Both the position numbers and the translations under genes were made by a program. A model generated the notes under the pieces. That model saw only the letters and a program-made list of their open reading frames with translations, searched no databases and had not been told where the DNA came from. Source: Paenibacillus alvei (GTDB lineage: Bacteria; Bacillota; Bacilli; Paenibacillales; NBRC-103111). Taken from it: a DNA stretch of 24,000 nt. Location of the stretch: assembly GCA_945881905.1 (NCBI GenBank), contig CAMCVV010000001.1, forward strand, positions 60,983 through 84,982. The letters run 5' to 3'. Shown in pieces: positions 5,415-13,437 of the stretch (position 1 is its first letter; the number at the start of each line of letters is the position of its first letter).

Positions 5415-7052
5415 GTGATGTGTATATTTTCAGTTTTACAGCGCCCGTTACCTGTGCTTTACGCACTTGTTGTGGGTTTATTTATTTGGATAGCACCAAC
5501 TATTGCAGGGGCTCATGCTACATTAGTTGAAGTCGAACCTGCACCTAATTCACAGTTCATCGAATCACCATCTATCGTTAAACTTTCGTTTAATGAACAG
5601 ATCGATCAAGGCCTATATTATATTCATGTATATAATCAAAGTGGCAGAAAAGTAACTTCAGCAGAAACGCAACTTAACGCGATGAAGACAGGTATAGAGC
5701 TAGACTTGCCCAAGCTAGATCCAGGTGTTTATGTGGTTAGTTATCATGTGATATCGTTAGATGGACATCCCATAAGCGGAAGTTACCCGATCACGGTCGG
5801 TTCTCTATCGATTTCTGAGGAAGAACCGATACTTCCTGGATTATCTACACATGAGCATAGCGGTACAGGTGCCTTTAGTATTTCGATGATGACACAATAC
5901 ATCACTAGAGCATTCTGGTATCTCACTATGACTGCGCTTGTCGGCTGGTTGATATGGCTTCGTTGGGTTCCTGTATCGATATCGAGAAACCCCTATTATC
6001 GTCAACACATCTTGCTACAGTTACAACGGGGGCATTTTATCGGGTTATTGTTTGTTGTTTTTACACATATGGAAGATTTATTGGGACGAAACAATATATC
6101 AGAAGTGCTGACCGTATTCACGTCTACAGGTGTCGGTATCAGTTGGTTAGGGATGCTTATTGCATCGTTGGTTGGTTTTTTTGTTTTAGGTCGGACGTGG
6201 ATTATAGACCTGACGTGGATCATTGCTTATATCGCAGCAAAAAGTATCAGTGGTCATGCGATTAGTTTTTCTCCGCAGTGGGTAACCGTAGGTTTAGATA
6301 TCATTCATTTATGCGCTGCAGCACTGTGGGTTAGTGGGTTAATATTCGTCTGGATTGCTTGGCGAAGACGTGAAGCAGATCGTTTGGAACTATTTCAGCG
6401 GTTCTCGCGTGTTGCTTTGATCTCTATCGCTGTCTTGAGTGTATCTGGCGTATTGACGCTATGGTTCTTCTTACCTAGCTTGATATATCTGACATATTCC
6501 ATGTGGGGTCTGTCCGTATTGATTAAAGTAGGATTCGTGTTATTGATTATATGTATCGCTACAGGGTTACGAACCTTTATTTCACGTGAAAGAGAGCAAA
6601 CGGTTCGCTTGTTATTGAAAGTAGACATTATAGGTATGCTAGCAATCATGATACTTGTAGGTTTCATGACGTATGCAGCACCTCTTCCCGCTAATGAGAA
6701 ACTGAATTGGCATGTGATGGGTGAAGAGATTCATATGACAGCAGATATCACACCTAAGGTACAAGGAACCAATACGTTCCAAGTGAAAGTTTGGTTAAGT
6801 GAAATGCGTGGAAAACCAAAAGAAGTCCAAATGATACTTAAATATCAAGATCAAGCGAATATGGCTGCGATCCGAGTTCCGATCGCAGTTTATGAGGATT
6901 CTGCTTTCGAAGAAAGTTTTGGTATGGTGAAGCATAGTTACCAAGCCGTGGGACCCTACCTTCCTTTCCGCGGGAAATATCAACTAGAAATACGCGTGAT
7001 GGATCTTGAGAATAACGAAACCGTGTATCAACAAGACTTGATTGTATATTAG
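5415..7052 (+). CDS. ycnJ: YcnJ-like copper transport protein (N-terminal CopC domain fused to a CopD membrane domain)
   Basis: Signal peptide ...IAGA, then HATLVEVEP (N-terminal His of CopC) and ISLDGHPISGSY (CopC DGHxxxG motif). About 8 TM helices follow (CopD-like), then a soluble C-terminal beta-rich domain. The 545-aa length resembles B. subtilis YcnJ. The start could be GTG 5415 or ATG 5418. Confidence 0.85.
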   Translation: MMCIFSVLQRPLPVLYALVVGLFIWIAPTIAGAHATLVEVEPAPNSQFIESPSIVKLSFNEQIDQGLYYIHVYNQSGRKVTSAETQLNAMKTGIELDLPKLDPGVYVVSYHVISLDGHPISGSYPITVGSLSISEEEPILPGLSTHEHSGTGAFSISMMTQYITRAFWYLTMTALVGWLIWLRWVPVSISRNPYYRQHILLQLQRGHFIGLLFVVFTHMEDLLGRNNISEVLTVFTSTGVGISWLGMLIASLVGFFVLGRTWIIDLTWIIAYIAAKSISGHAISFSPQWVTVGLDIIHLCAAALWVSGLIFVWIAWRRREADRLELFQRFSRVALISIAVLSVSGVLTLWFFLPSLIYLTYSMWGLSVLIKVGFVLLIICIATGLRTFISREREQTVRLLLKVDIIGMLAIMILVGFMTYAAPLPANEKLNWHVMGEEIHMTADITPKVQGTNTFQVKVWLSEMRGKPKEVQMILKYQDQANMAAIRVPIAVYEDSAFEESFGMVKHSYQAVGPYLPFRGKYQLEIRVMDLENNETVYQQDLIVY

Positions 7053-7070
7053 ATATTAGTTAGCGAGAGT

Positions 7071-7116
7071 AAGCCGCTAATGCAAATCGTGATGATTTGC
7101 ATAGTGGCTTTTTTGA
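7071..7116 (+). terminator. strong rho-independent terminator after the ycnJ-like gene
   Basis: An 18-bp stem: AAGCCGCTAATGCAAATC (7071-7088), loop GTGA, GATTTGCATAGTGGCTT (one G-U pair), running into a T-run. Confidence 0.8.
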
Positions 7117-7157
7117 CGTTTCAACGAATATTTCGTGAACATCTTCAGACACGGCGA

Positions 7158-7186
7158 TTAGAAATGGCTTGATAAGGAAATATAAT
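7158..7186 (+). promoter_or_regulatory. putative promoter of the bacteriocin structural gene
   Basis: TTAGAA (7158-7163), 17-nt spacer, perfect TATAAT (7181-7186). This would give a leader of about 100 nt before the ATG at 7296. Pattern match only. Confidence 0.4.
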
Positions 7187-7295
7187 GGGGTAGAGCAGGT
7201 ATTTTCGAGAACGAAAGCGCATATCAATAAGATATAGAAGAAGAACCACTGTGATCAGATGAAAATTAAGAATTCTATAGAAATGAGGAGATTGT

Positions 7296-7526
7296 ATGCA
7301 ACAGATCATAGGAGCACAATTCGAAGAATTAACCATGGATGAATTAATCCATATTGATGGGGGGACATGCACAACAACAGAATTAAGAACTGAGACGCTG
7401 CGTGGCATAATTAAAGGTGGTATTGCCGGTATGATGACGGGTTCAATCAAAGGGGCTTTGATTGGAGCAACGATTGGAGGACTTACGGAAGCTATAGATT
7501 ATAACTATACGTGCCGTAAGCAGTAG
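7296..7526 (+). CDS. class II bacteriocin precursor with double-glycine leader (23-aa leader plus 53-aa glycine-zipper core)
   Basis: SD GAGGAG lies 6 nt before the ATG. The leader MQQIIGAQFEELTMDELIHIDGG fits the GG-leader consensus at F-15, L-12, E-8, L-7, I-4, G-2 and G-1. The core is TCTTTELRTETLRGIIKGGIAGMMTGSIKGALIGATIGGLTEAIDYNYTCRKQ. A C39-ABC exporter and an HlyD protein are encoded directly downstream. Confidence 0.85.
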   Translation: MQQIIGAQFEELTMDELIHIDGGTCTTTELRTETLRGIIKGGIAGMMTGSIKGALIGATIGGLTEAIDYNYTCRKQ

Positions 7527-7651
7527 AACGTGCTATATAATTTCTGATAGCAAGGAATCGCTTCATAGGTTCCGACAGTGAAACCAGTCCACATCGAGGG
7601 ATTAGAGGAATGAGAAGTAATTCTCAAGTCAATAGGGAAACAATAATGTAT

Positions 7652-7695
7652 CCAGCAGAGGAAAGAAATCACTCTGCTGGTTGAAATTGTTTTAC
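7652..7695 (+). terminator. hairpin, possibly a leaky terminator or attenuator between the peptide gene and the export operon
   Basis: CCAGCAGAG (7652-7660), 11-nt loop, CTCTGCTGG (7672-7680), a perfect 9-bp stem. It is followed by TTGAAATTGTTTT, an interrupted T-tract. Confidence 0.45.
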
Positions 7696-7719
7696 AAAAT
7701 ATGGAAATTTTGATAAGAT
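7691..7719 (+). promoter_or_regulatory. putative promoter for the M48-ABC-HlyD operon
   Basis: TTTACA (7691-7696), 17-nt spacer ending in TGa, then TAAGAT (7714-7719), an extended -10-like element. Pattern match only. Confidence 0.3.
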
Positions 7720-7797
7720 AACAAATGTTTATGAAACCAATGTACCTAGCGGAGCATCATCCTTTAAGCATCAAAATGACGTAAGAGAGGATATAAA

Positions 7798-8943
7798 ATG
7801 ACAAATGAAATGATGATCATTACAGCTGTAATCACACTCGTATTAAATGCAATCACCCCTCTATTCATCAATCAAATCACCTTAAAGAAGTATGAATTAA
7901 CGCATTCTGCAGAAAAAGCGTTACACACGATGCAATCCTTGAAGCAGTATCTTCAAATTACATTTCTAGCATTAGGTGCATTTTCATTTACGCATGCGCT
8001 CATTCAATTGTCTGCACATAGTGCTCCAAGCAGGTGGATGTTTTATATCACCATCGTTGTATATAGTGCGATCATCATCGTCTATGGACAGCTTGTTTTT
8101 CATCGAGTTACGAAGAAAATACGACAAACCGAAACCACGTGGAAAGATGAATTTACAAATACGCTCAAAGATTTACTCATCATTTTGATACCTTTGATTA
8201 CCTACAAATTGTTGCGAACATACTTTGCAGGACCAGAGCATGATAATGAGTGGAAAGATTTTGGGGTTTACGTGATATTTCTAATGATTGTACAAATCGT
8301 TTATCCATTTTTAGTGTATGCGCAGTTGAGTGCGAGACCCATACAAGACAAAAAAATTCACAAGTCGATTGTTGCTTTCATGAAGCTACAGCATGAAAGC
8401 CGGATTGGTGTATATGAGTTTCCATCCAAGAAGAGTAAGAATGCTCATGCTTGGGTCAGTGGGATCATCATCAAAAAAATTTTTATTGCGGATTATCTGA
8501 TTGAGAAACTGACCATTGCAGAGTTACATGCTGTGATTGCACATGAAATTGGTCATTGCAAAAAAAACCATCAACTGATCAAATTAGGTTTATTTATCAT
8601 GATCTACCCGATGGTTATGATTTTGAATGAATGTTCGATTCGATTAGAAACATGGATTGGGGGTAGCTTGTCATTTATTTACGGTTTAGGTTTTTTTGTT
8701 TTTTTTCTATTGCTTTATTATGTATATATCTATCAAGCCGTATCTAGAATTCATGAGCACCAAGCTGACCAATATGTGTTGGAAGTTTGTGAGAAGGATG
8801 ATTTGACATCAGCGTTAAACAAACTTACGAAATTGAATAATCATATGACGACGTTTCATAGAATAACTGAAAAGTTTCAGTCGCATCCTTCACTTGAGAA
8901 AAGAATAACGTGGATTGAACAGAACAGCAGTTATTCCAGTTAA
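7798..8943 (+). CDS. polytopic membrane M48-family (Ste24/HtpX-type) zinc metallopeptidase; candidate bacteriocin immunity or maturation factor
   Basis: SD AGAGAGG lies 7 nt before the ATG. About 5 N-terminal TM helices come first. Then HAVIAHEIGHCKKNH (HExxH), two more TM helices, EHQADQYV (third zinc ligand, ExxAD) and SHPSLEKRI (M48 C-terminal motif). The stop lies 10 nt before the ABC transporter start. Confidence 0.8.
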   Translation: MTNEMMIITAVITLVLNAITPLFINQITLKKYELTHSAEKALHTMQSLKQYLQITFLALGAFSFTHALIQLSAHSAPSRWMFYITIVVYSAIIIVYGQLVFHRVTKKIRQTETTWKDEFTNTLKDLLIILIPLITYKLLRTYFAGPEHDNEWKDFGVYVIFLMIVQIVYPFLVYAQLSARPIQDKKIHKSIVAFMKLQHESRIGVYEFPSKKSKNAHAWVSGIIIKKIFIADYLIEKLTIAELHAVIAHEIGHCKKNHQLIKLGLFIMIYPMVMILNECSIRLETWIGGSLSFIYGLGFFVFFLLLYYVYIYQAVSRIHEHQADQYVLEVCEKDDLTSALNKLTKLNNHMTTFHRITEKFQSHPSLEKRITWIEQNSSYSS

Positions 8944-8953
8944 AGGAGGGCAC

Positions 8954-11155
8954 ATGTTTCGTAAGTATCCCTATGTTCAACAACAAGATCGTAAAGACTG
9001 CGGAGCAGCATGTCTTGCTAGCATATGTAAGTACCATGGACTACGTTATCCAATTTCTAGAATCCGGATGATGGCTAACACTGATTTACAAGGAAACAAC
9101 GTGTATGGGCTGCTCCAGGCCGCTCATAAACTTGGATTCACTGCGAAAGGCGTAAAGGGTAGTCCTGAAGATTTCTTTGAACCCTTCCCTTTACCTGCAA
9201 TTGCACATGTACTCATCGATCAATCGCTTCTGCATTATATCGTCATCTATAAAATCACGAAAAAAGAAATATTGATTGCAGATCCTGCCAAAGGGATTAT
9301 GAAATATCGTCCTAAAGATTTCTTCGCGATATGGTCAGGCGTTCTTATTTTGATGACGCCTTCTCCTGTGTTCCAAAAAGGAAATGAGCAACCACACATG
9401 CTTGCTCGTTTTTTTCAATGCATCATTCCACATCGAAAATTATTGGCACATATAGGTATGGCCACTTTACTTTATACGGGTTTAGGTATCGCTGGTGCAT
9501 TTTACTTTAGAGTTATTATCGATGAGATTGTACCTTATCAACTGATGAAGACGTTACATATGATTTCACTAGGTATGGTTGTGCTCACAATATGCAAAGT
9601 GATACTGCAAGCTTTCAGAAACTATCTATTACTATATCTCCATCAAAAACTTGATGTATCTTTGATCCTCGGGTATTACCATCATGTATTGCAATTGCCT
9701 ATGAACTTTTTTGCAACAAGAAAGTCGGGTGAAATCATTTCTCGGTTGCAAGATGCTTTTCATGTGCGGGATGCGATTTCTCAAGTCACCTTAACGATTA
9801 TGTTCGATATCATTATGATTGTAGCGGGAGGGATATTTCTTTTTGCACAAAATTCATATTTGTTTGTTGTTACTTTAATCGTCATACCTTTATATGCGAT
9901 CATCGTGATGGTGTTTCGTAAACCTTTTGAGCATAGAAATCGTATGCATATGGAAAAAAACGAACAATTGACTACATATCTCTTCGAGTCTATAAATGGT
10001 ATCGAAACGCTCAAAGCTTATCATGCAGAAGACCAAAGCACAAGTCAAACCGAATATAAATTCGTTGTTTTGCTGAGAAGTATGTTCAAGCTTGGTTTCA
10101 TTCATCAGCTACAATCATCAATGAAAGGCTTAGTCCAAGCACTCGGAGCCATAGCCATATTATGGATCGGTGCTTATCAAGTCATCCAAGGCGAAATCAC
10201 GATCGGTCAATTGATCACATTTCAAGCGTTGCTGTTTTACTTTCTCGAGCCGATACATAATGTGATTAATTTGCAACCCATCATTCAGACAGCAATCGTG
10301 GCTGCAGATCGCCTCGGAGAAATTCTTCAACTAGAGCAGGAGAAATCTGTGAATGAAGATCAAAAGCTGCAACCGCATAACTTGAAAGGAAACATTGACA
10401 TCGCACATATCGATTTCCGTTATGGAACACGTCAACTCGTATTAAAAAACATTCATCTACAGATTGCAAGCGGAGAGAAAGTTGCGCTTGTAGGAGAAAG
10501 TGGTTCTGGGAAAACAACGTTAATCAAGCTTCTGATGAATTTTTATCATGTAGAAAAAGGAACTATTTCATTTGGGGGATATCCTATTCAAGACATCCAT
10601 GTAGGTGTATTAAGACAAAAAATTGCATATCTTCCTCAAAATCATTTCTTTTTCAGTGGAACGATTCGAGATAATTTATGTTTGGGTATGGACGAGCCTA
10701 TCGCGCTTGAAAGGGTCATTGATGCAGCACGCAAAGCGCAAGCCGACGAATTTATTCATCGATTGCCGATGCGTTATGATACGATACTTGAGGAAAATGC
10801 ATCTAATCTATCAGGTGGACAAAAACAACGATTAGCGATTGCAAGAGCGATTCTAAAAAATCCTGACATTTTGATTATGGATGAGGCCACGAGTAACTTA
10901 GACACGTCGACAGAAAAAGCAATTTCAAGTATGATTCATCAATTTGATCGTATCACCACAATTATCATTGCTCATCGATTAAGTACGATCATGAAGTGTG
11001 ATCGTATCGTTGTCATTGAACAAGGAGAGATTATCGAGATAGGGACTCATCAAGAGTTAGTGAGTAAACAAGGTAAATATCATGAACTTTGGAAGCATCA
11101 ATTTCCGGATATGGATTCAGCTCATGAGGGCATTGGAAAGGTAGAAGCGGTATGA
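8954..11155 (+). CDS. bacteriocin-processing ABC transporter with N-terminal C39 peptidase domain (LagD/ComA/BlpA type)
   Basis: AAGGAGG lies 4 nt before the ATG at 8954. The N-terminus YVQQQDRKDCGAACLASI carries the C39 Gln and catalytic Cys. LLHYIVIY and ILIADP supply the candidate His and Asp. Six TM helices follow, then Walker A GESGSGKTT, signature LSGGQKQR, Walker B ILIMDEATS and H-loop IIAHRL. Confidence 0.93.
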   Translation: MFRKYPYVQQQDRKDCGAACLASICKYHGLRYPISRIRMMANTDLQGNNVYGLLQAAHKLGFTAKGVKGSPEDFFEPFPLPAIAHVLIDQSLLHYIVIYKITKKEILIADPAKGIMKYRPKDFFAIWSGVLILMTPSPVFQKGNEQPHMLARFFQCIIPHRKLLAHIGMATLLYTGLGIAGAFYFRVIIDEIVPYQLMKTLHMISLGMVVLTICKVILQAFRNYLLLYLHQKLDVSLILGYYHHVLQLPMNFFATRKSGEIISRLQDAFHVRDAISQVTLTIMFDIIMIVAGGIFLFAQNSYLFVVTLIVIPLYAIIVMVFRKPFEHRNRMHMEKNEQLTTYLFESINGIETLKAYHAEDQSTSQTEYKFVVLLRSMFKLGFIHQLQSSMKGLVQALGAIAILWIGAYQVIQGEITIGQLITFQALLFYFLEPIHNVINLQPIIQTAIVAADRLGEILQLEQEKSVNEDQKLQPHNLKGNIDIAHIDFRYGTRQLVLKNIHLQIASGEKVALVGESGSGKTTLIKLLMNFYHVEKGTISFGGYPIQDIHVGVLRQKIAYLPQNHFFFSGTIRDNLCLGMDEPIALERVIDAARKAQADEFIHRLPMRYDTILEENASNLSGGQKQRLAIARAILKNPDILIMDEATSNLDTSTEKAISSMIHQFDRITTIIIAHRLSTIMKCDRIVVIEQGEIIEIGTHQELVSKQGKYHELWKHQFPDMDSAHEGIGKVEAV

Positions 11156-12480
11156 ATATTCGATTCAAATCGTTTGAACAAATGACAGATAGTAGAGAAA
11201 TGCTTGAAGCACAAGCACATCCTTGTGTTCTCTTTTTTATCTATATGGGCGGCTTGTTCGTTGTGATTGCGGGGTTATGGAGTTATTTCGCAGAAATCGA
11301 GGATATCGTGAAAGCAGAAGGCATTGTTGAGCTTAATCAACAAGTCGTGACTGTGCGAAATAACATAGCTGGACAAGTTGAGCACATGTATTATTCTCAA
11401 AATCAAGAAGTCTCGCAAGGAGAGCTCCTGCTTAGATTTAATCAACAAGATCTTGAAGTGGAGTTGGAGATGTTGAAAGTTGATTACCACAATATGTATA
11501 CTGAGCTCGAAGCGTTAACCCAATTGATCGCCAATCCAAGATATCTGCATCGCCAAGAAGGGGAAGGCAATTCCAGTTATTTTCGAAGCGTCGAATTTCG
11601 TCTGCAAGCTAACCATCAAGCGGGTGAATATGTGCAAGAAACGCTTCGGAGGTTACACCTTTTAGGGAGTTCTACGAGCCAAGAAGGAAATCCAATATTT
11701 GAAGGTAATCACGAATATCACTATAAATACCAAGATTACCTCTTGAAGAAAAAGAAAATTCAACACCACATCACCCGTATTGAACAAGATCTTCACGCAG
11801 CACTCACCACTTACACACCAATCGAAGAATTCAATCGTATGAATCAACAACGAGAGGAAGCTATCTTAGACTTAGAGACATTTACCAATGGATTCGAACT
11901 TCATCTTCAACAAGAGATCTCCTCAGAAAAGATGAAAATGAAGCAAATTCACTTTGATCGTGAACAGATTTTTGCAGAGATTCAAGCATGGATAAGGGAA
12001 CGCGAACCCCGATTACACGATATACTTAATCGCATCCAACACATTGGACAACAGCAACTCAATCGCGAGCTAAGAGCCTCAACTGCCGGGACAGTTCATG
12101 TATTGAGAGAAACGCATGTAGGGGATTTGTTATCTGTTGGTGAAGAGCTCATTACAATCGTTCCAGCTCATCAAGAAGAATATGAGGTTAGCTTATCGAT
12201 AACTTCGCATCAAGACTATAGGAGAATCAGTCTAGGTAAAACTGTGCAATTTCAGTTTGTAGCGTTGCCGCATCTTACATATAGACAAGCAACAGGAACC
12301 ATTATCAGTAAGCAACGAGGTGTGCTTAAAGCTAGACTGCTCGTTACACCTGATGATCAACGGGAAGGAGGGACGGAAATTAGTTTGCAACAAGGCATGG
12401 TTACACAAGCACGTATTCATATTGGGAATACGCGCATCTGGCATTATGTGTTGGCCAAAATGAATTTACGTGAACCATGA
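11152..12480 (+). CDS. HlyD-family bacteriocin secretion accessory protein (LcnD/ComB-like)
   Basis: ATGA start/stop overlap with the ABC gene. A single N-terminal TM (VLFFIYMGGLFVVIAGLWSYF) is followed by a lipoyl-like hairpin segment (KAEGIVE...GQV...V.QGELLL.F), a long coiled-coil region and a C-terminal beta-barrel-like segment. Confidence 0.85.
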   Translation: MNIRFKSFEQMTDSREMLEAQAHPCVLFFIYMGGLFVVIAGLWSYFAEIEDIVKAEGIVELNQQVVTVRNNIAGQVEHMYYSQNQEVSQGELLLRFNQQDLEVELEMLKVDYHNMYTELEALTQLIANPRYLHRQEGEGNSSYFRSVEFRLQANHQAGEYVQETLRRLHLLGSSTSQEGNPIFEGNHEYHYKYQDYLLKKKKIQHHITRIEQDLHAALTTYTPIEEFNRMNQQREEAILDLETFTNGFELHLQQEISSEKMKMKQIHFDREQIFAEIQAWIREREPRLHDILNRIQHIGQQQLNRELRASTAGTVHVLRETHVGDLLSVGEELITIVPAHQEEYEVSLSITSHQDYRRISLGKTVQFQFVALPHLTYRQATGTIISKQRGVLKARLLVTPDDQREGGTEISLQQGMVTQARIHIGNTRIWHYVLAKMNLREP

Positions 12481-12491
12481 GACAGTTGCGA

Positions 12492-12968
12492 TTAATTTTT
12501 GAAATAAGTTCGTATTTCTTCAATTCGCTTGCGGTTTAAGCCCATGTCTGAATAACCTACGCGAGAAGCTGAACGAAAGTCAATTCGTGCTTGTTCTTTA
12601 TGAATGAGAAACTCCACATCATCCACATAACGAATCCATTGCGTTGTAAACTCAGCGCGAATGTAGTTATCGAATTCTTCCACAATCACAGCATGTGGCA
12701 GGGCAGATAAGATTTCGATGATACGTTGTTTCGGTTCTGTGATCGAAGTAGGAACAGTGATTGGATCCGCATAATGCAAGGTGTCAGTGGGCTCACTATG
12801 AGATGATATGCAGTTAGGCGAAGTTTTGCAAGGCGCTAATTGACCATCTGTGACCCCTGAAGTAGTTCCTGGAGGGAAACTGTTTTGCAGCGTACCGCTT
12901 TTTGCATATAATCGTATGATCACGAATAATACCAAAGCGATCGCGATCAAGATGAGAAGCCATTTCAT
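12492..12968 (-). CDS. DUF1499-family protein with N-terminal membrane anchor
   Basis: ATG at 12968 lies 8 nt after AAGGAGG. MKWLLILIAIALVLFVII is a TM or signal segment. PCKTSPNCISS, YVDDVEF and FRSASRVGYSDMGLNRKRIEEIR match my recollection of the DUF1499 pattern. The 239-aa ORF in the track is an upstream over-extension. Confidence 0.8.
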   Translation of the reverse strand: MKWLLILIAIALVLFVIIRLYAKSGTLQNSFPPGTTSGVTDGQLAPCKTSPNCISSHSEPTDTLHYADPITVPTSITEPKQRIIEILSALPHAVIVEEFDNYIRAEFTTQWIRYVDDVEFLIHKEQARIDFRSASRVGYSDMGLNRKRIEEIRTYFKN

Positions 12969-13053
12969 AGATGTTTCCTCCTTGATTGATTTCGTTTCAT
13001 TATACATATCATAACGTGATATGTAAGTTTTGAAAAGCATACACAATCTGAAC

Positions 13054-13082
13054 TTGCAACAGCAGCAGATGTTGCATATAAT
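13054..13082 (+). promoter_or_regulatory. pheST promoter
   Basis: TTGCAA (13054-13059), 17-nt spacer, perfect TATAAT (13077-13082), positioned just upstream of the T-box leader. Confidence 0.55.
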
Positions 13083-13089
13083 GCAAGTA

Positions 13090-13390
13090 GATACATATAA
13101 AAAATGTGATGATAGAGAAAAGTAAATAGTGCATCTGTACAGGGAGAGAAAACCTAGATTGAGAGTTTTCTCATGGATTAAGGCTATTGAAGTTCGCTCT
13201 TGAACAGTCATTTGAAGAAGTAACGTCTTGCGATTCGTTACTTTAGTAGATGGTACCGGATAATTTCCGTTATGCGAATGAAGTGAGATTAAAATCGCTT
13301 GTTCATATTAGAGGACACAATAAGCATTTTAACTAACAAGGGTGGTAACGCGGCTTTTTCGTCCCTTAAGGGAGAAAGGGTTTTTTATGT
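13090..13390 (+). promoter_or_regulatory. T-box riboswitch leader (Phe specifier) controlling pheS-pheT
   Basis: Elements found in order: GA/K-turn motif (GTGATGA), AGTA box, AGAGA-like box (CAGGGAGAG), F-box CCGTTA (13267-13272) and T-box core AAGGGTGGTAACGCGG (13338-13353). The terminator is CCCTT..AAGGG plus TTTTTT (13362-13386). The candidate specifier UUC at 13193-13195 sits in GAAG-UUC-G just 5' of the stem-closing CUCU. Confidence 0.85.
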
Positions 13391-13437
13391 TATTCTAAAC
13401 CATAAATGAAAGATTCCACACGAAGGAGGGTATTCAA

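Follow-up and report, generated by a model that had tools for sequence, protein, structure and literature searches.

A 24,000-nucleotide stretch of Paenibacillus alvei DNA (assembly GCA_945881905.1, contig CAMCVV010000001.1, positions 60,983 to 84,982 of the forward strand; hereafter the window) contains, at positions 7158-12480, four intact called open reading frames (ORFs) encoding a 76-aa peptide precursor with a double-glycine (GG) leader, a 381-aa membrane metalloprotease of family M48, a 733-aa ATP-binding cassette exporter with a C39 peptidase domain (C39-ABC) and a 442-aa HlyD/LcnD-like accessory protein. The assignments to production and export follow from family matches at curated thresholds, and they support the reading of this block as a bona fide class II GG-leader bacteriocin locus, making and exporting one unmodified peptide of predicted activity. 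The sequence contexts of related genes, moreover, strongly support the M48 protease as a dedicated and conserved partner of glycine-rich GG-leader peptides, and not an incidental neighbour. The best explanation of the locus as a whole, on which our confidence is evenly balanced, is a IId-type bacteriocin system in which a Ste24-fold M48 protease provides self-protection, housed in a block that is resident at its site.

The M48 protease and its recurrence beside glycine-rich precursors

A word-index search with the M48 protein returned two close relatives only and suggested a near-orphan; it was superseded by an exhaustive HMMER profile search, based on a trio of M48 proteins, which retrieved 50 cluster representatives at E <= 1e-30, mostly full-length (370-430 aa). 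In seven of the eight genomic contexts covered, and in each of those at E <= 4e-48, the M48 gene is tied to glycine-rich GG-leader peptides and/or to a C39-ABC exporter. The representative P0183, which is found on 37 contigs and whose 90% cluster includes Paenibacillus woosongensis and P. humicus, lies directly 3' of a GG-leader glycine-rich peptide gene in a locus that also contains GerE, C39-ABC and LcnD genes. P0180 is likewise directly 3' of such a peptide gene, P0195 is 3' of one with a possible 54-aa transmembrane (TM) ORF, and P0179 is 3' of two, together with an 80-aa TM ORF, and is followed by a C39-ABC gene. A C39-ABC gene also lies directly 3' of two M48 genes whose products are 53% (P0002, on a JGI 3300059473 contig, at the same DUF1499/pheS site as in the window) and 48% (P0003, on a 3-kb contig) identical to the window protein. 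P0215 (E 4e-36), a housekeeping Ste24-like gene, sits in an unrelated context.

The peptides associated with these M48 genes share family and composition. PF10439 is matched by all five, with three scores above the gathering threshold, and several show weak glycine-zipper matches; runs of 5-13 glycines at i+4 spacing are present in four, the run in the 88-aa peptide of locus L089 being 3. No M48 relatives were found in the plasmid collection or in a metagenome contig scan with the M48 trio alignment, and a degenerate DNA pattern for K-x-[IV]-F-I-x-D-Y-L recovered, among 120 matches listed, one true M48, which was already known.

The window protease carries the motifs H249-E250-x-x-H253, E320-x-x-A323-D324 and H363-P364-S365. 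No substitution of H249, E250, H253, E320, A323, D324 or H363 is seen in any of three alignments, of 3, 17 and 26 relatives; in the 26-sequence one, P364 and S365 reach at least 90% conservation. Profile comparison against PDB matched the protein to yeast Ste24p (E 6.5e-18), and the best AlphaFold2 (AF2) model (pLDDT 81, pTM 0.78) was aligned by Foldseek over its full length to ZMPSTE24/Ste24p with query-normalised TM-scores of 0.54-0.66 (E 3e-10 to 7.5e-7), the entries 4il3, 4aw6 and 2ypt yielding TM-scores of 0.55-0.66 over ~420 columns (E 3e-10 to 6e-9). Hydropathy gives seven TM segments. Together, these models predict the seven-TM chamber fold of Ste24/ZMPSTE24. The counts of lysine and arginine on the loops (4, 6, 14 and 8 on those predicted inside; 0, 1, 0 and 1 outside) place the active site, by the positive-inside rule, in the cytoplasm, so that the catalytic domain is predicted to occupy the cytoplasmic face, as in Ste24. 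The N-terminal Ste24 domain family PF16491 (Peptidase_M48_N) was matched neither in the window protein nor in 26 members of its clade, whereas housekeeping Ste24-like matches do carry it, and no protein of the locus matched the CPBP domain PF02517.

Two further observations concern the related loci. At L091 4733-6309, a 101-aa peptide that has a GG leader and four repeats of the type 'TTLA[IL]GEE' adjoins an ATP-grasp gene; it resembles a graspetide (omega-ester peptide) precursor, and it probably shares the C39-ABC/LcnD exporter with the glycine-rich bacteriocin of this one locus, which also has an M48 gene. A soluble protein of 150-180 aa recurs in Paenibacillaceae GG-bacteriocin loci with or without M48 (L089 43-516, L091 8199-8672, L085 5172-5711 and L087 2387-2839) and is absent from the window. 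The L089 copy has weak DUF5085 and GyrI-like matches and the L087 copy a DUF5085 match, whereas the L091 copy is grouped with them solely for its size and position, and the L085 copy was assigned by eye; the protein might be a regulator or a binding protein.

Precursor, export machinery and layout of the locus

The first-pass annotation of this DNA had proposed a GG-leader class II bacteriocin, and HMMER analysis bears this out: residues 8-62 of the precursor match PF10439 (Bacteriocin_IIc) with 36.6 bits against a gathering score of 27.1. The leader, read from the sequence, has the canonical pattern F-15, L-12, E-8, L-7, I-4, G-2, G-1, and its match to TIGR01847 falls just short of the cutoff (13.7 against 15.7 bits). 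The core has an average mass of 5551.4 Da (monoisotopic 5545.84 Da with one disulfide), a pI of 8.8 and a net charge of +2. Its glycines at positions 14, 18, 22, 26, 30, 34 and 38 form a run of seven at exact i+4 spacing, a length reached in 2 of 200,000 shuffles, and its two cysteines, Cys2 and Cys50, lie one near each end. A single-sequence AF2 model, with block-mean pLDDT of 89-93 over precursor residues 31-70, comprises helices at core positions 4-23 and 28-52 joined by a short turn, and predicts a helical hairpin. In this model each helix would bear a GxxxGxxxG face, and Cys2 and Cys50 would both lie where the hairpin is open, a placement in which a disulfide could form. The peptide may thus unite in one chain the GxxxG helix-helix arrangement known from two-peptide bacteriocins; no gene for a second, complementary peptide (class IIb) was found, the locus having a single GG-leader ORF.

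Searches for relatives of the peptide itself returned little. A word-index search of 5.8 billion proteins recovered only the query, PDB yielded no homologue, and matches to glycine-zipper families were weak. The best Foldseek match of the model, to MceA (microcin E492) in ManYZ (7dyr_A), was not significant (E 2.8), and a microcin E492 fold was rejected on this ground. A lanthipeptide or glycocin was considered in view of the Thr/Cys-rich N-terminus of the core and a weak lichenicidin-leader match, and was rejected in the absence of LanM, glycosyltransferase or other modifying enzymes from the 24 kb. The core ends (residues 50-53, window 7512-7523) in Cys-Arg-Lys-Gln, which places a cysteine at -4, as in a eukaryotic CaaX box. 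The related M48-linked peptides, with the endings GWW, FWW, IFK or FKK, do not share this feature, and its occurrence beside a Ste24-type gene is therefore probably a coincidence.

The exporter gene starts 1.4 kb 3' of the precursor stop. Its product scores 699.7 bits against TIGR01193 ('peptide cleavage/export ABC transporter'; cutoff 523.85), contains the domains PF03412 (1e-40), PF00664 (1e-51) and PF00005 (2e-36), and is 68% identical to Paenibacillus exporters. The loci of its closest relatives (67-68% identical ABC proteins, Paenibacillus) have histidine kinase (HK) and response regulator (RR) genes, two 84-aa GG peptides, an unrelated 180-aa membrane protein in the slot before the ABC gene, and no M48. 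The accessory protein exceeds the cutoff of PF13437 HlyD_3 (28 against 22.2 bits), stays below those of TIGR01843 (86.6 against 208.65) and TIGR01000 bacteriocin_acc (59 against 258.85), and weakly matches PF25935 BSH_LcnD, as judged from which it is a divergent member of the HlyD/LcnD superfamily. The contig of the 53%-identical M48 relative has no HlyD/LcnD gene, and its ABC gene ends just 116 nt from DUF1499, the precursor region lying off the contig. Because this locus has M48 and C39-ABC genes and no HlyD/LcnD gene, the accessory protein would be either dispensable or lost in that relative.

The layout of the block (Table 1) is as first described, with all four genes, both borders and the junctions recovered. 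On the left it is bordered by the copper gene ycnJ (CopC/CopD, 5415-7052), whose terminator was rightly called very strong: the fold at 7071-7110 with its U-run has a dG of -25.1 kcal/mol (z -5.8), and 0 of 200 shuffles were equally stable. The precursor and M48 genes are separated by a 271-nt spacer (7527-7797) containing the hairpin that had been reported there, which 0 of 200 shuffles fold as well and which is likely to act as a partial terminator or attenuator. The start of a related 3-kb contig (L001 1-24) resembles the 3' arm of this hairpin (window 7672-7695, CTCTGCTGG), and the attenuator may, to judge from this similarity, be conserved in that 48%-identical relative. The M48 and ABC genes are 10 nt apart, the gap holding an AGGAGG ribosome-binding site, and the ABC gene, starting at 8954, overlaps the HlyD gene by an ATGA at 11152-11155; both junctions had been given exactly. 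The promoter-like element ascribed to the precursor is present and well placed, but promoter-like matches in the region show no enrichment (20 observed against 21.5 expected from shuffles), and the site proves nothing by itself.

On the right, a convergent DUF1499 gene, correctly named as the boundary, lies 11 nt past the HlyD stop. The true gene is 12492-12968 (158 aa, minus strand); a 239-aa ORF (12492-13211) is over-extended, since it extends into the T-box leader of pheS, which is on the opposite strand. DUF1499 was considered as a component of the system and rejected as a mere neighbour: it is present at the three same-site loci, but no other M48-bacteriocin locus has it. The three assemblies read (ERZ27280263, ERZ27280265 and ERR3719153) contain every ORF intact, with 100% identity, and the window sequence also occurs in ENA metagenome assemblies, on a 133-kb contig.

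Table 1. Coordinates of the genes and sequence elements of the locus and its borders, as positions in the window.
Feature	Position	Strand	Basis or remark
Precursor ORF, 76 aa	7296-7526	+	PF10439 Bacteriocin_IIc
Double-glycine leader, 23 aa, MQQIIGAQFEELTMDELIHIDGG	7296..7364	+	Within PF10439 match
Core peptide, 53 aa, TCTTTELRTETLRGIIKGGIAGMMTGSIKGALIGATIGGLTEAIDYNYTCRKQ, and stop codon	7365..7526	+	PF10439
Ste24-fold M48 zinc metalloprotease (fold predicted), 381 aa	7798..8943	+	PF01435, 79 bits
Peptidase-containing ABC exporter (C39 + ABC_membrane + ABC_tran), 733 aa	8954..11155	+	TIGR01193
LcnD/HlyD-like accessory (membrane-fusion) protein, 442 aa, translationally coupled to ABC	11152..12480	+	PF13437
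Ribosome-binding site GAGGAG, 5 nt 5' of precursor ATG	7285..7290	+	Read from sequence
Promoter-like site TAGAAA, 16 nt, TATAAT, 5' of precursor gene	7159..7186	+	10/12 match, best of region; position only
Hairpin with weak U-tract between precursor and M48 genes	7652..7680	+	dG -19.7 kcal/mol, z -4.5
Second promoter-like site TTTACA, 17 nt, TG-TAAGAT, ahead of M48-ABC-HlyD	7691..7719	+	9/12 match, extended TG; position only
Intrinsic terminator of ycnJ, left locus boundary	7071..7116	+	Interrupted 16-bp stem, then UUUUUU
T-box leader (RF00230) ahead of pheS	13100-13369	+	94.4 bits, gathering score 93; only Rfam match of the window

Proposed function and alternative explanations

The first-pass annotation had remarked on a lack of both regulators and a canonical immunity gene, and neither was found. 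Pfam and NCBIfam searches identified no HK, RR or pheromone gene anywhere in the 24-kb window and no known immunity family among their matches, and the interval 7050-7800, spacer included, contains no small hydrophobic ORF on either strand. Since the M48 gene recurs next to glycine-rich GG-leader genes, the apparent lack of an immunity gene is better read as a non-canonical candidate, the protease itself, occupying the immunity slot. Small hydrophobic ORFs do occur near the peptide and M48 genes of L089 (1405-1647, 80 aa), L093 (455-619, 54 aa) and L091 (6407-6502, 31 aa); there is none in the window or in L090.

In the mechanism that we propose, the C39 domain would recognise the double-glycine leader and cut after Gly23, and the ABC exporter and LcnD-like accessory protein would export the 53-aa core; at the level of family assignment, leader cleavage by C39 and export by ABC/LcnD are strongly supported. 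The core hairpin would then insert in target membranes, where it might self-associate or wedge into a membrane protein. Peptide that has entered the membrane of the producer itself would be drawn into the intramembrane chamber of the M48 protease and cut at its zinc site, which faces the cytoplasm; the producer would thereby be protected. Transcription would proceed without local quorum-sensing control, and the ratio of peptide to machinery is probably kept high by the hairpin that follows the structural gene.

That the M48 protease is the self-protection factor of the producer is a proposal whose probability we place at, or a little under, one half. It is favoured because the gene directly follows the structural gene, in the classical immunity position, and in L091 lies even apart from the exporter; because M48 is the sole constant partner across loci in which small TM ORFs come and go, the window offering no other candidate membrane ORF; because the leader already has a protease of its own in C39; and because a chamber with lateral access to the bilayer suits the destruction of a membrane-inserting peptide. 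A further reason is that Abi/CPBP, the other CAAX-protease family, has been linked to bacteriocin immunity: CAAX-type membrane proteases in bacteriocin loci are reported to confer it (PMC9298176). The wider proposal, that a Ste24-fold M48 clade was recruited in Bacillales to provide immunity by proteolysis against glycine-zipper GG-leader bacteriocins, as a second, independently recruited CAAX-protease type beside Abi/CPBP, is more tentative, and we hold it somewhat short of even.

Several points weigh against self-protection. The genomic contexts come from eight members of the M48 family only, and the other four of the five M48 models scored pLDDT 61-68. The small TM ORFs of L089, L093 and L091 could encode true immunity proteins present alongside the protease. 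Among 5.8 billion proteins the peptide found no homologue from which its predicted activity could be argued even by analogy; cleavage of the peptide by the protease, and protection of the cell, are likewise proposals. Published cases point elsewhere. The TMcin leader is taken off within the membrane by TmcP, an intramembrane zinc protease (PMC13252029); SilX, a CAAX protease, is required for a bacteriocin to be produced, not for immunity to it (PMC9298176); and the M48 protein adjoining altitudin S is proposed to act in processing (bioRxiv 10.1101/2025.10.31.685828).

These three cases are also the precedents for the strongest alternative, in which the M48 protein is a maturation or handling enzyme that acts on the membrane-associated precursor from the cytoplasm, before or during export. 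It might, for example, trim the C-terminal RKQ after Cys50 or clear mis-inserted precursor; Ste24 acts on CaaX substrates and on clogged translocons. The predicted active site is cytoplasmic, on the same side as the precursor, and the core ends in C-R-K-Q with its CaaX-like cysteine, a residue that the related M48-linked peptides do not conserve. The GG leader is already served by the C39 protease, no prenyltransferase gene was found in the window and no other modifying enzyme in the locus, and the closest exporter relatives make similar glycine-rich GG peptides without an M48 protein. We consider this explanation possible, though on the unlikely side.

It is improbable that the peptide is not a diffusible bacteriocin at all but a CdzC/D-like, contact-dependent glycine-zipper toxin, or a non-toxic membrane or signalling peptide, whose level is set by the M48 protease. 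After export by C39-ABC/HlyD systems, glycine-zipper peptides can remain attached to the surface of the producing cell and act by contact killing, as stated for CdzCD (PMC13059744), and the weak glycine-zipper matches and the lack of a homologue of known activity would fit such a role. The PF10439 match is above threshold, however, the size, charge, pI and leader are typical of class II bacteriocins, and no receptor or regulator gene for a signal is present in the window.

A separate question is whether the block is a recently acquired genomic island. Horizontal origin had been hinted at from low GC in the M48 gene relative to pheT, and that contrast holds in part: overall GC is lower in M48 (35.8% against 42.7%), but the difference is absent at third codon positions (GC3 0.380 against 0.341) and reflects amino-acid composition only, the low value stemming from codon positions 1 and 2, that is, from the residue content of a membrane protein. 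Over the whole block, GC is slightly lower than in the rest of the window (38.6% against 40.4%), whereas pooled GC3 matches that of the flanks (0.358 against 0.354) and per-gene codon log-likelihoods fall inside the flank range, so that composition and codon usage leave the block indistinguishable from the flanking housekeeping genes. Neither integrase nor transposase was found among the window ORFs and Pfam calls, nor a tRNA at the borders, flanking repeats not having been searched for explicitly. In two relatives, both from a different metagenome, the block is again found at the DUF1499/pheS site; the HlyD protein of one is 95% identical, and the other is the HlyD-less locus whose M48 protein shares just 53% identity, a divergence that implies long residence. 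Horizontal origin, as hinted, thus found no support, the block showing both host-like composition and, largely, conservation at its site.

On the other side of this question, none of the Paenibacillus genomes retrieved has the block between ycnJ and pheS, where the cargo differs by species. A pheS scan of genome contigs gave 80 loci, none holding the block, and a YcnJ scan gave no match; the window, a fragment of a Paenibacillaceae chromosome, encodes a PheS at most 78% identical to those of Paenibacillus species. These species, too, have ycnJ ~5 kb upstream of pheS, with unrelated genes between the two. Loci L005 (5018-10001) and L021 (4694-10001), compared with window 7053-13437, carry differing cargo between conserved flanks, the large ORFs of L005 resembling, from translations read by eye, a glutaminase, an aldo-keto reductase, an MFS transporter and a MarR-type regulator, and the cargo of L021 consisting of other genes. 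The ycnJ-pheS interval is, in sum, a variable cargo slot across Paenibacillaceae. Because its composition is host-like and two relatives hold it at the same site, we consider the block a long-resident, lineage-specific occupant of this slot, in part observed and in part presumed, and recent import quite improbable.

Least probable is that the M48 protein is a BlaR1-like sensor or regulatory protease, responding to the peptide by cleaving a repressor: weak PF05569 (Peptidase_M56) matches are given by 23 of 26 clade members, and some related loci have HTH or GerE regulators nearby, but there is no sensor domain and, in the window, no repressor gene, and Foldseek TM-scores to BlaR1 are 0.25-0.28, against 0.54-0.66 to Ste24/ZMPSTE24.

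Significance and comparison with known systems

Full-text literature searches returned no description of M48, Ste24 or metalloprotease genes paired with GG-leader bacteriocins, and the coupling of a Ste24-fold M48 clade to glycine-zipper GG-leader bacteriocins appears to be undescribed. All but the protease belongs to a well-known kind, class II bacteriocin loci being common, and the export machinery is ordinary. A genome-mining rule that demands a small immunity gene would miss such loci. Should the protease prove to be the immunity factor, the locus would offer a clean system for studying the recognition and destruction of a membrane-inserting peptide in an intramembrane chamber, and a defined natural substrate for bacterial Ste24 homologues, whose functions are, to our knowledge, largely unknown; in human cells, ZMPSTE24 has been proposed to clear toxic membrane-associated peptides. 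A single chain with the GxxxG helix-helix motif and, near each end, a cysteine that could enter a disulfide is also a compact template for peptide design, and the question can be tested in cultured species that carry the sister clade, Paenibacillus woosongensis (WP_213593952.1 locus) and Evansella alkalicola.

The nearest published case is an M48 gene beside circular bacteriocins (bioRxiv 10.1101/2025.10.31.685828). The altitudin S-type clusters described there likewise place a conserved M48 gene beside a bacteriocin structural gene in Bacillales, whereas the present locus has a GG leader and a C39-ABC/LcnD exporter; the two M48 groups are likened by description only. TMcin (TmcA/TmcP/TmcD/TmcBC; PMC13252029) is an antimicrobial peptide embedded in the membrane and with one disulfide, as would be the peptide of the present locus, and it too has an intramembrane zinc protease in its cluster. 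Its TmcP is a leader protease of the S2P-clan DUF3267 family, its transporter is a type V ABC protein, a DsbA is encoded, and there is neither GG leader nor C39 (PMC13252029); none of its families (DUF3267 protease, DsbA-family oxidoreductase, type V ABC) was matched in the locus.

In most respects the locus resembles PF10439 class II loci with LcnC/LcnD-type export. It shares with them a GG leader of hydrophobic pattern, a GxxxG-rich hydrophobic core, a C39-ABC exporter with an LcnD-like accessory protein, and a gene order in which the structural gene comes first and a membrane-protein gene next. Lactacin F, brochocin-C and thermophilin 13 are examples of the Bacteriocin_IIc type. Unlike those loci, it encodes one peptide, no small immunity protein and no pheromone/HK/RR module; it has a protease of predicted Ste24 fold in the immunity slot, and a peptide without a detectable sequence homologue.

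The export arrangement also recalls microcin E492 and CdzC-CdzD, which combine a GG-type leader, C39-ABC and membrane-fusion export and a glycine-rich helical hairpin, the last being predicted here. Those systems are Gram-negative and have small dedicated immunity proteins, and the structural match to the peptide is the non-significant one given above.

For the protease, the structural counterpart is Ste24p/ZMPSTE24, with which it shares the predicted seven-TM chamber, the HExxH and ExxAD zinc site and the N-out/C-in topology; it is just 17-20% identical to these proteins, ~40-100 residues shorter and without their PF16491 domain, and we know of no prenylated CaaX substrate in these bacteria. 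The functional counterpart is the Abi/CPBP (PF02517) group of immunity proteins, Rce1-type CAAX proteases such as PlnI, PlnLR, SkkI and BlpY. The original work on bacteriocin immunity by CAAX-type proteases is said to be that of Kjos et al. 2010 (J Bacteriol). In common with the Abi/CPBP proteins, the M48 protein spans the membrane several times, is encoded in a class II bacteriocin operon, keeps its catalytic motifs and has self-protection as its proposed role; unlike them, it is a zinc metalloprotease of the Ste24 kind, a type I CAAX protease, and not a glutamate intramembrane protease. The resemblance would accordingly be one of function and position only, between two types of CAAX protease that stand in the same place in bacteriocin loci.

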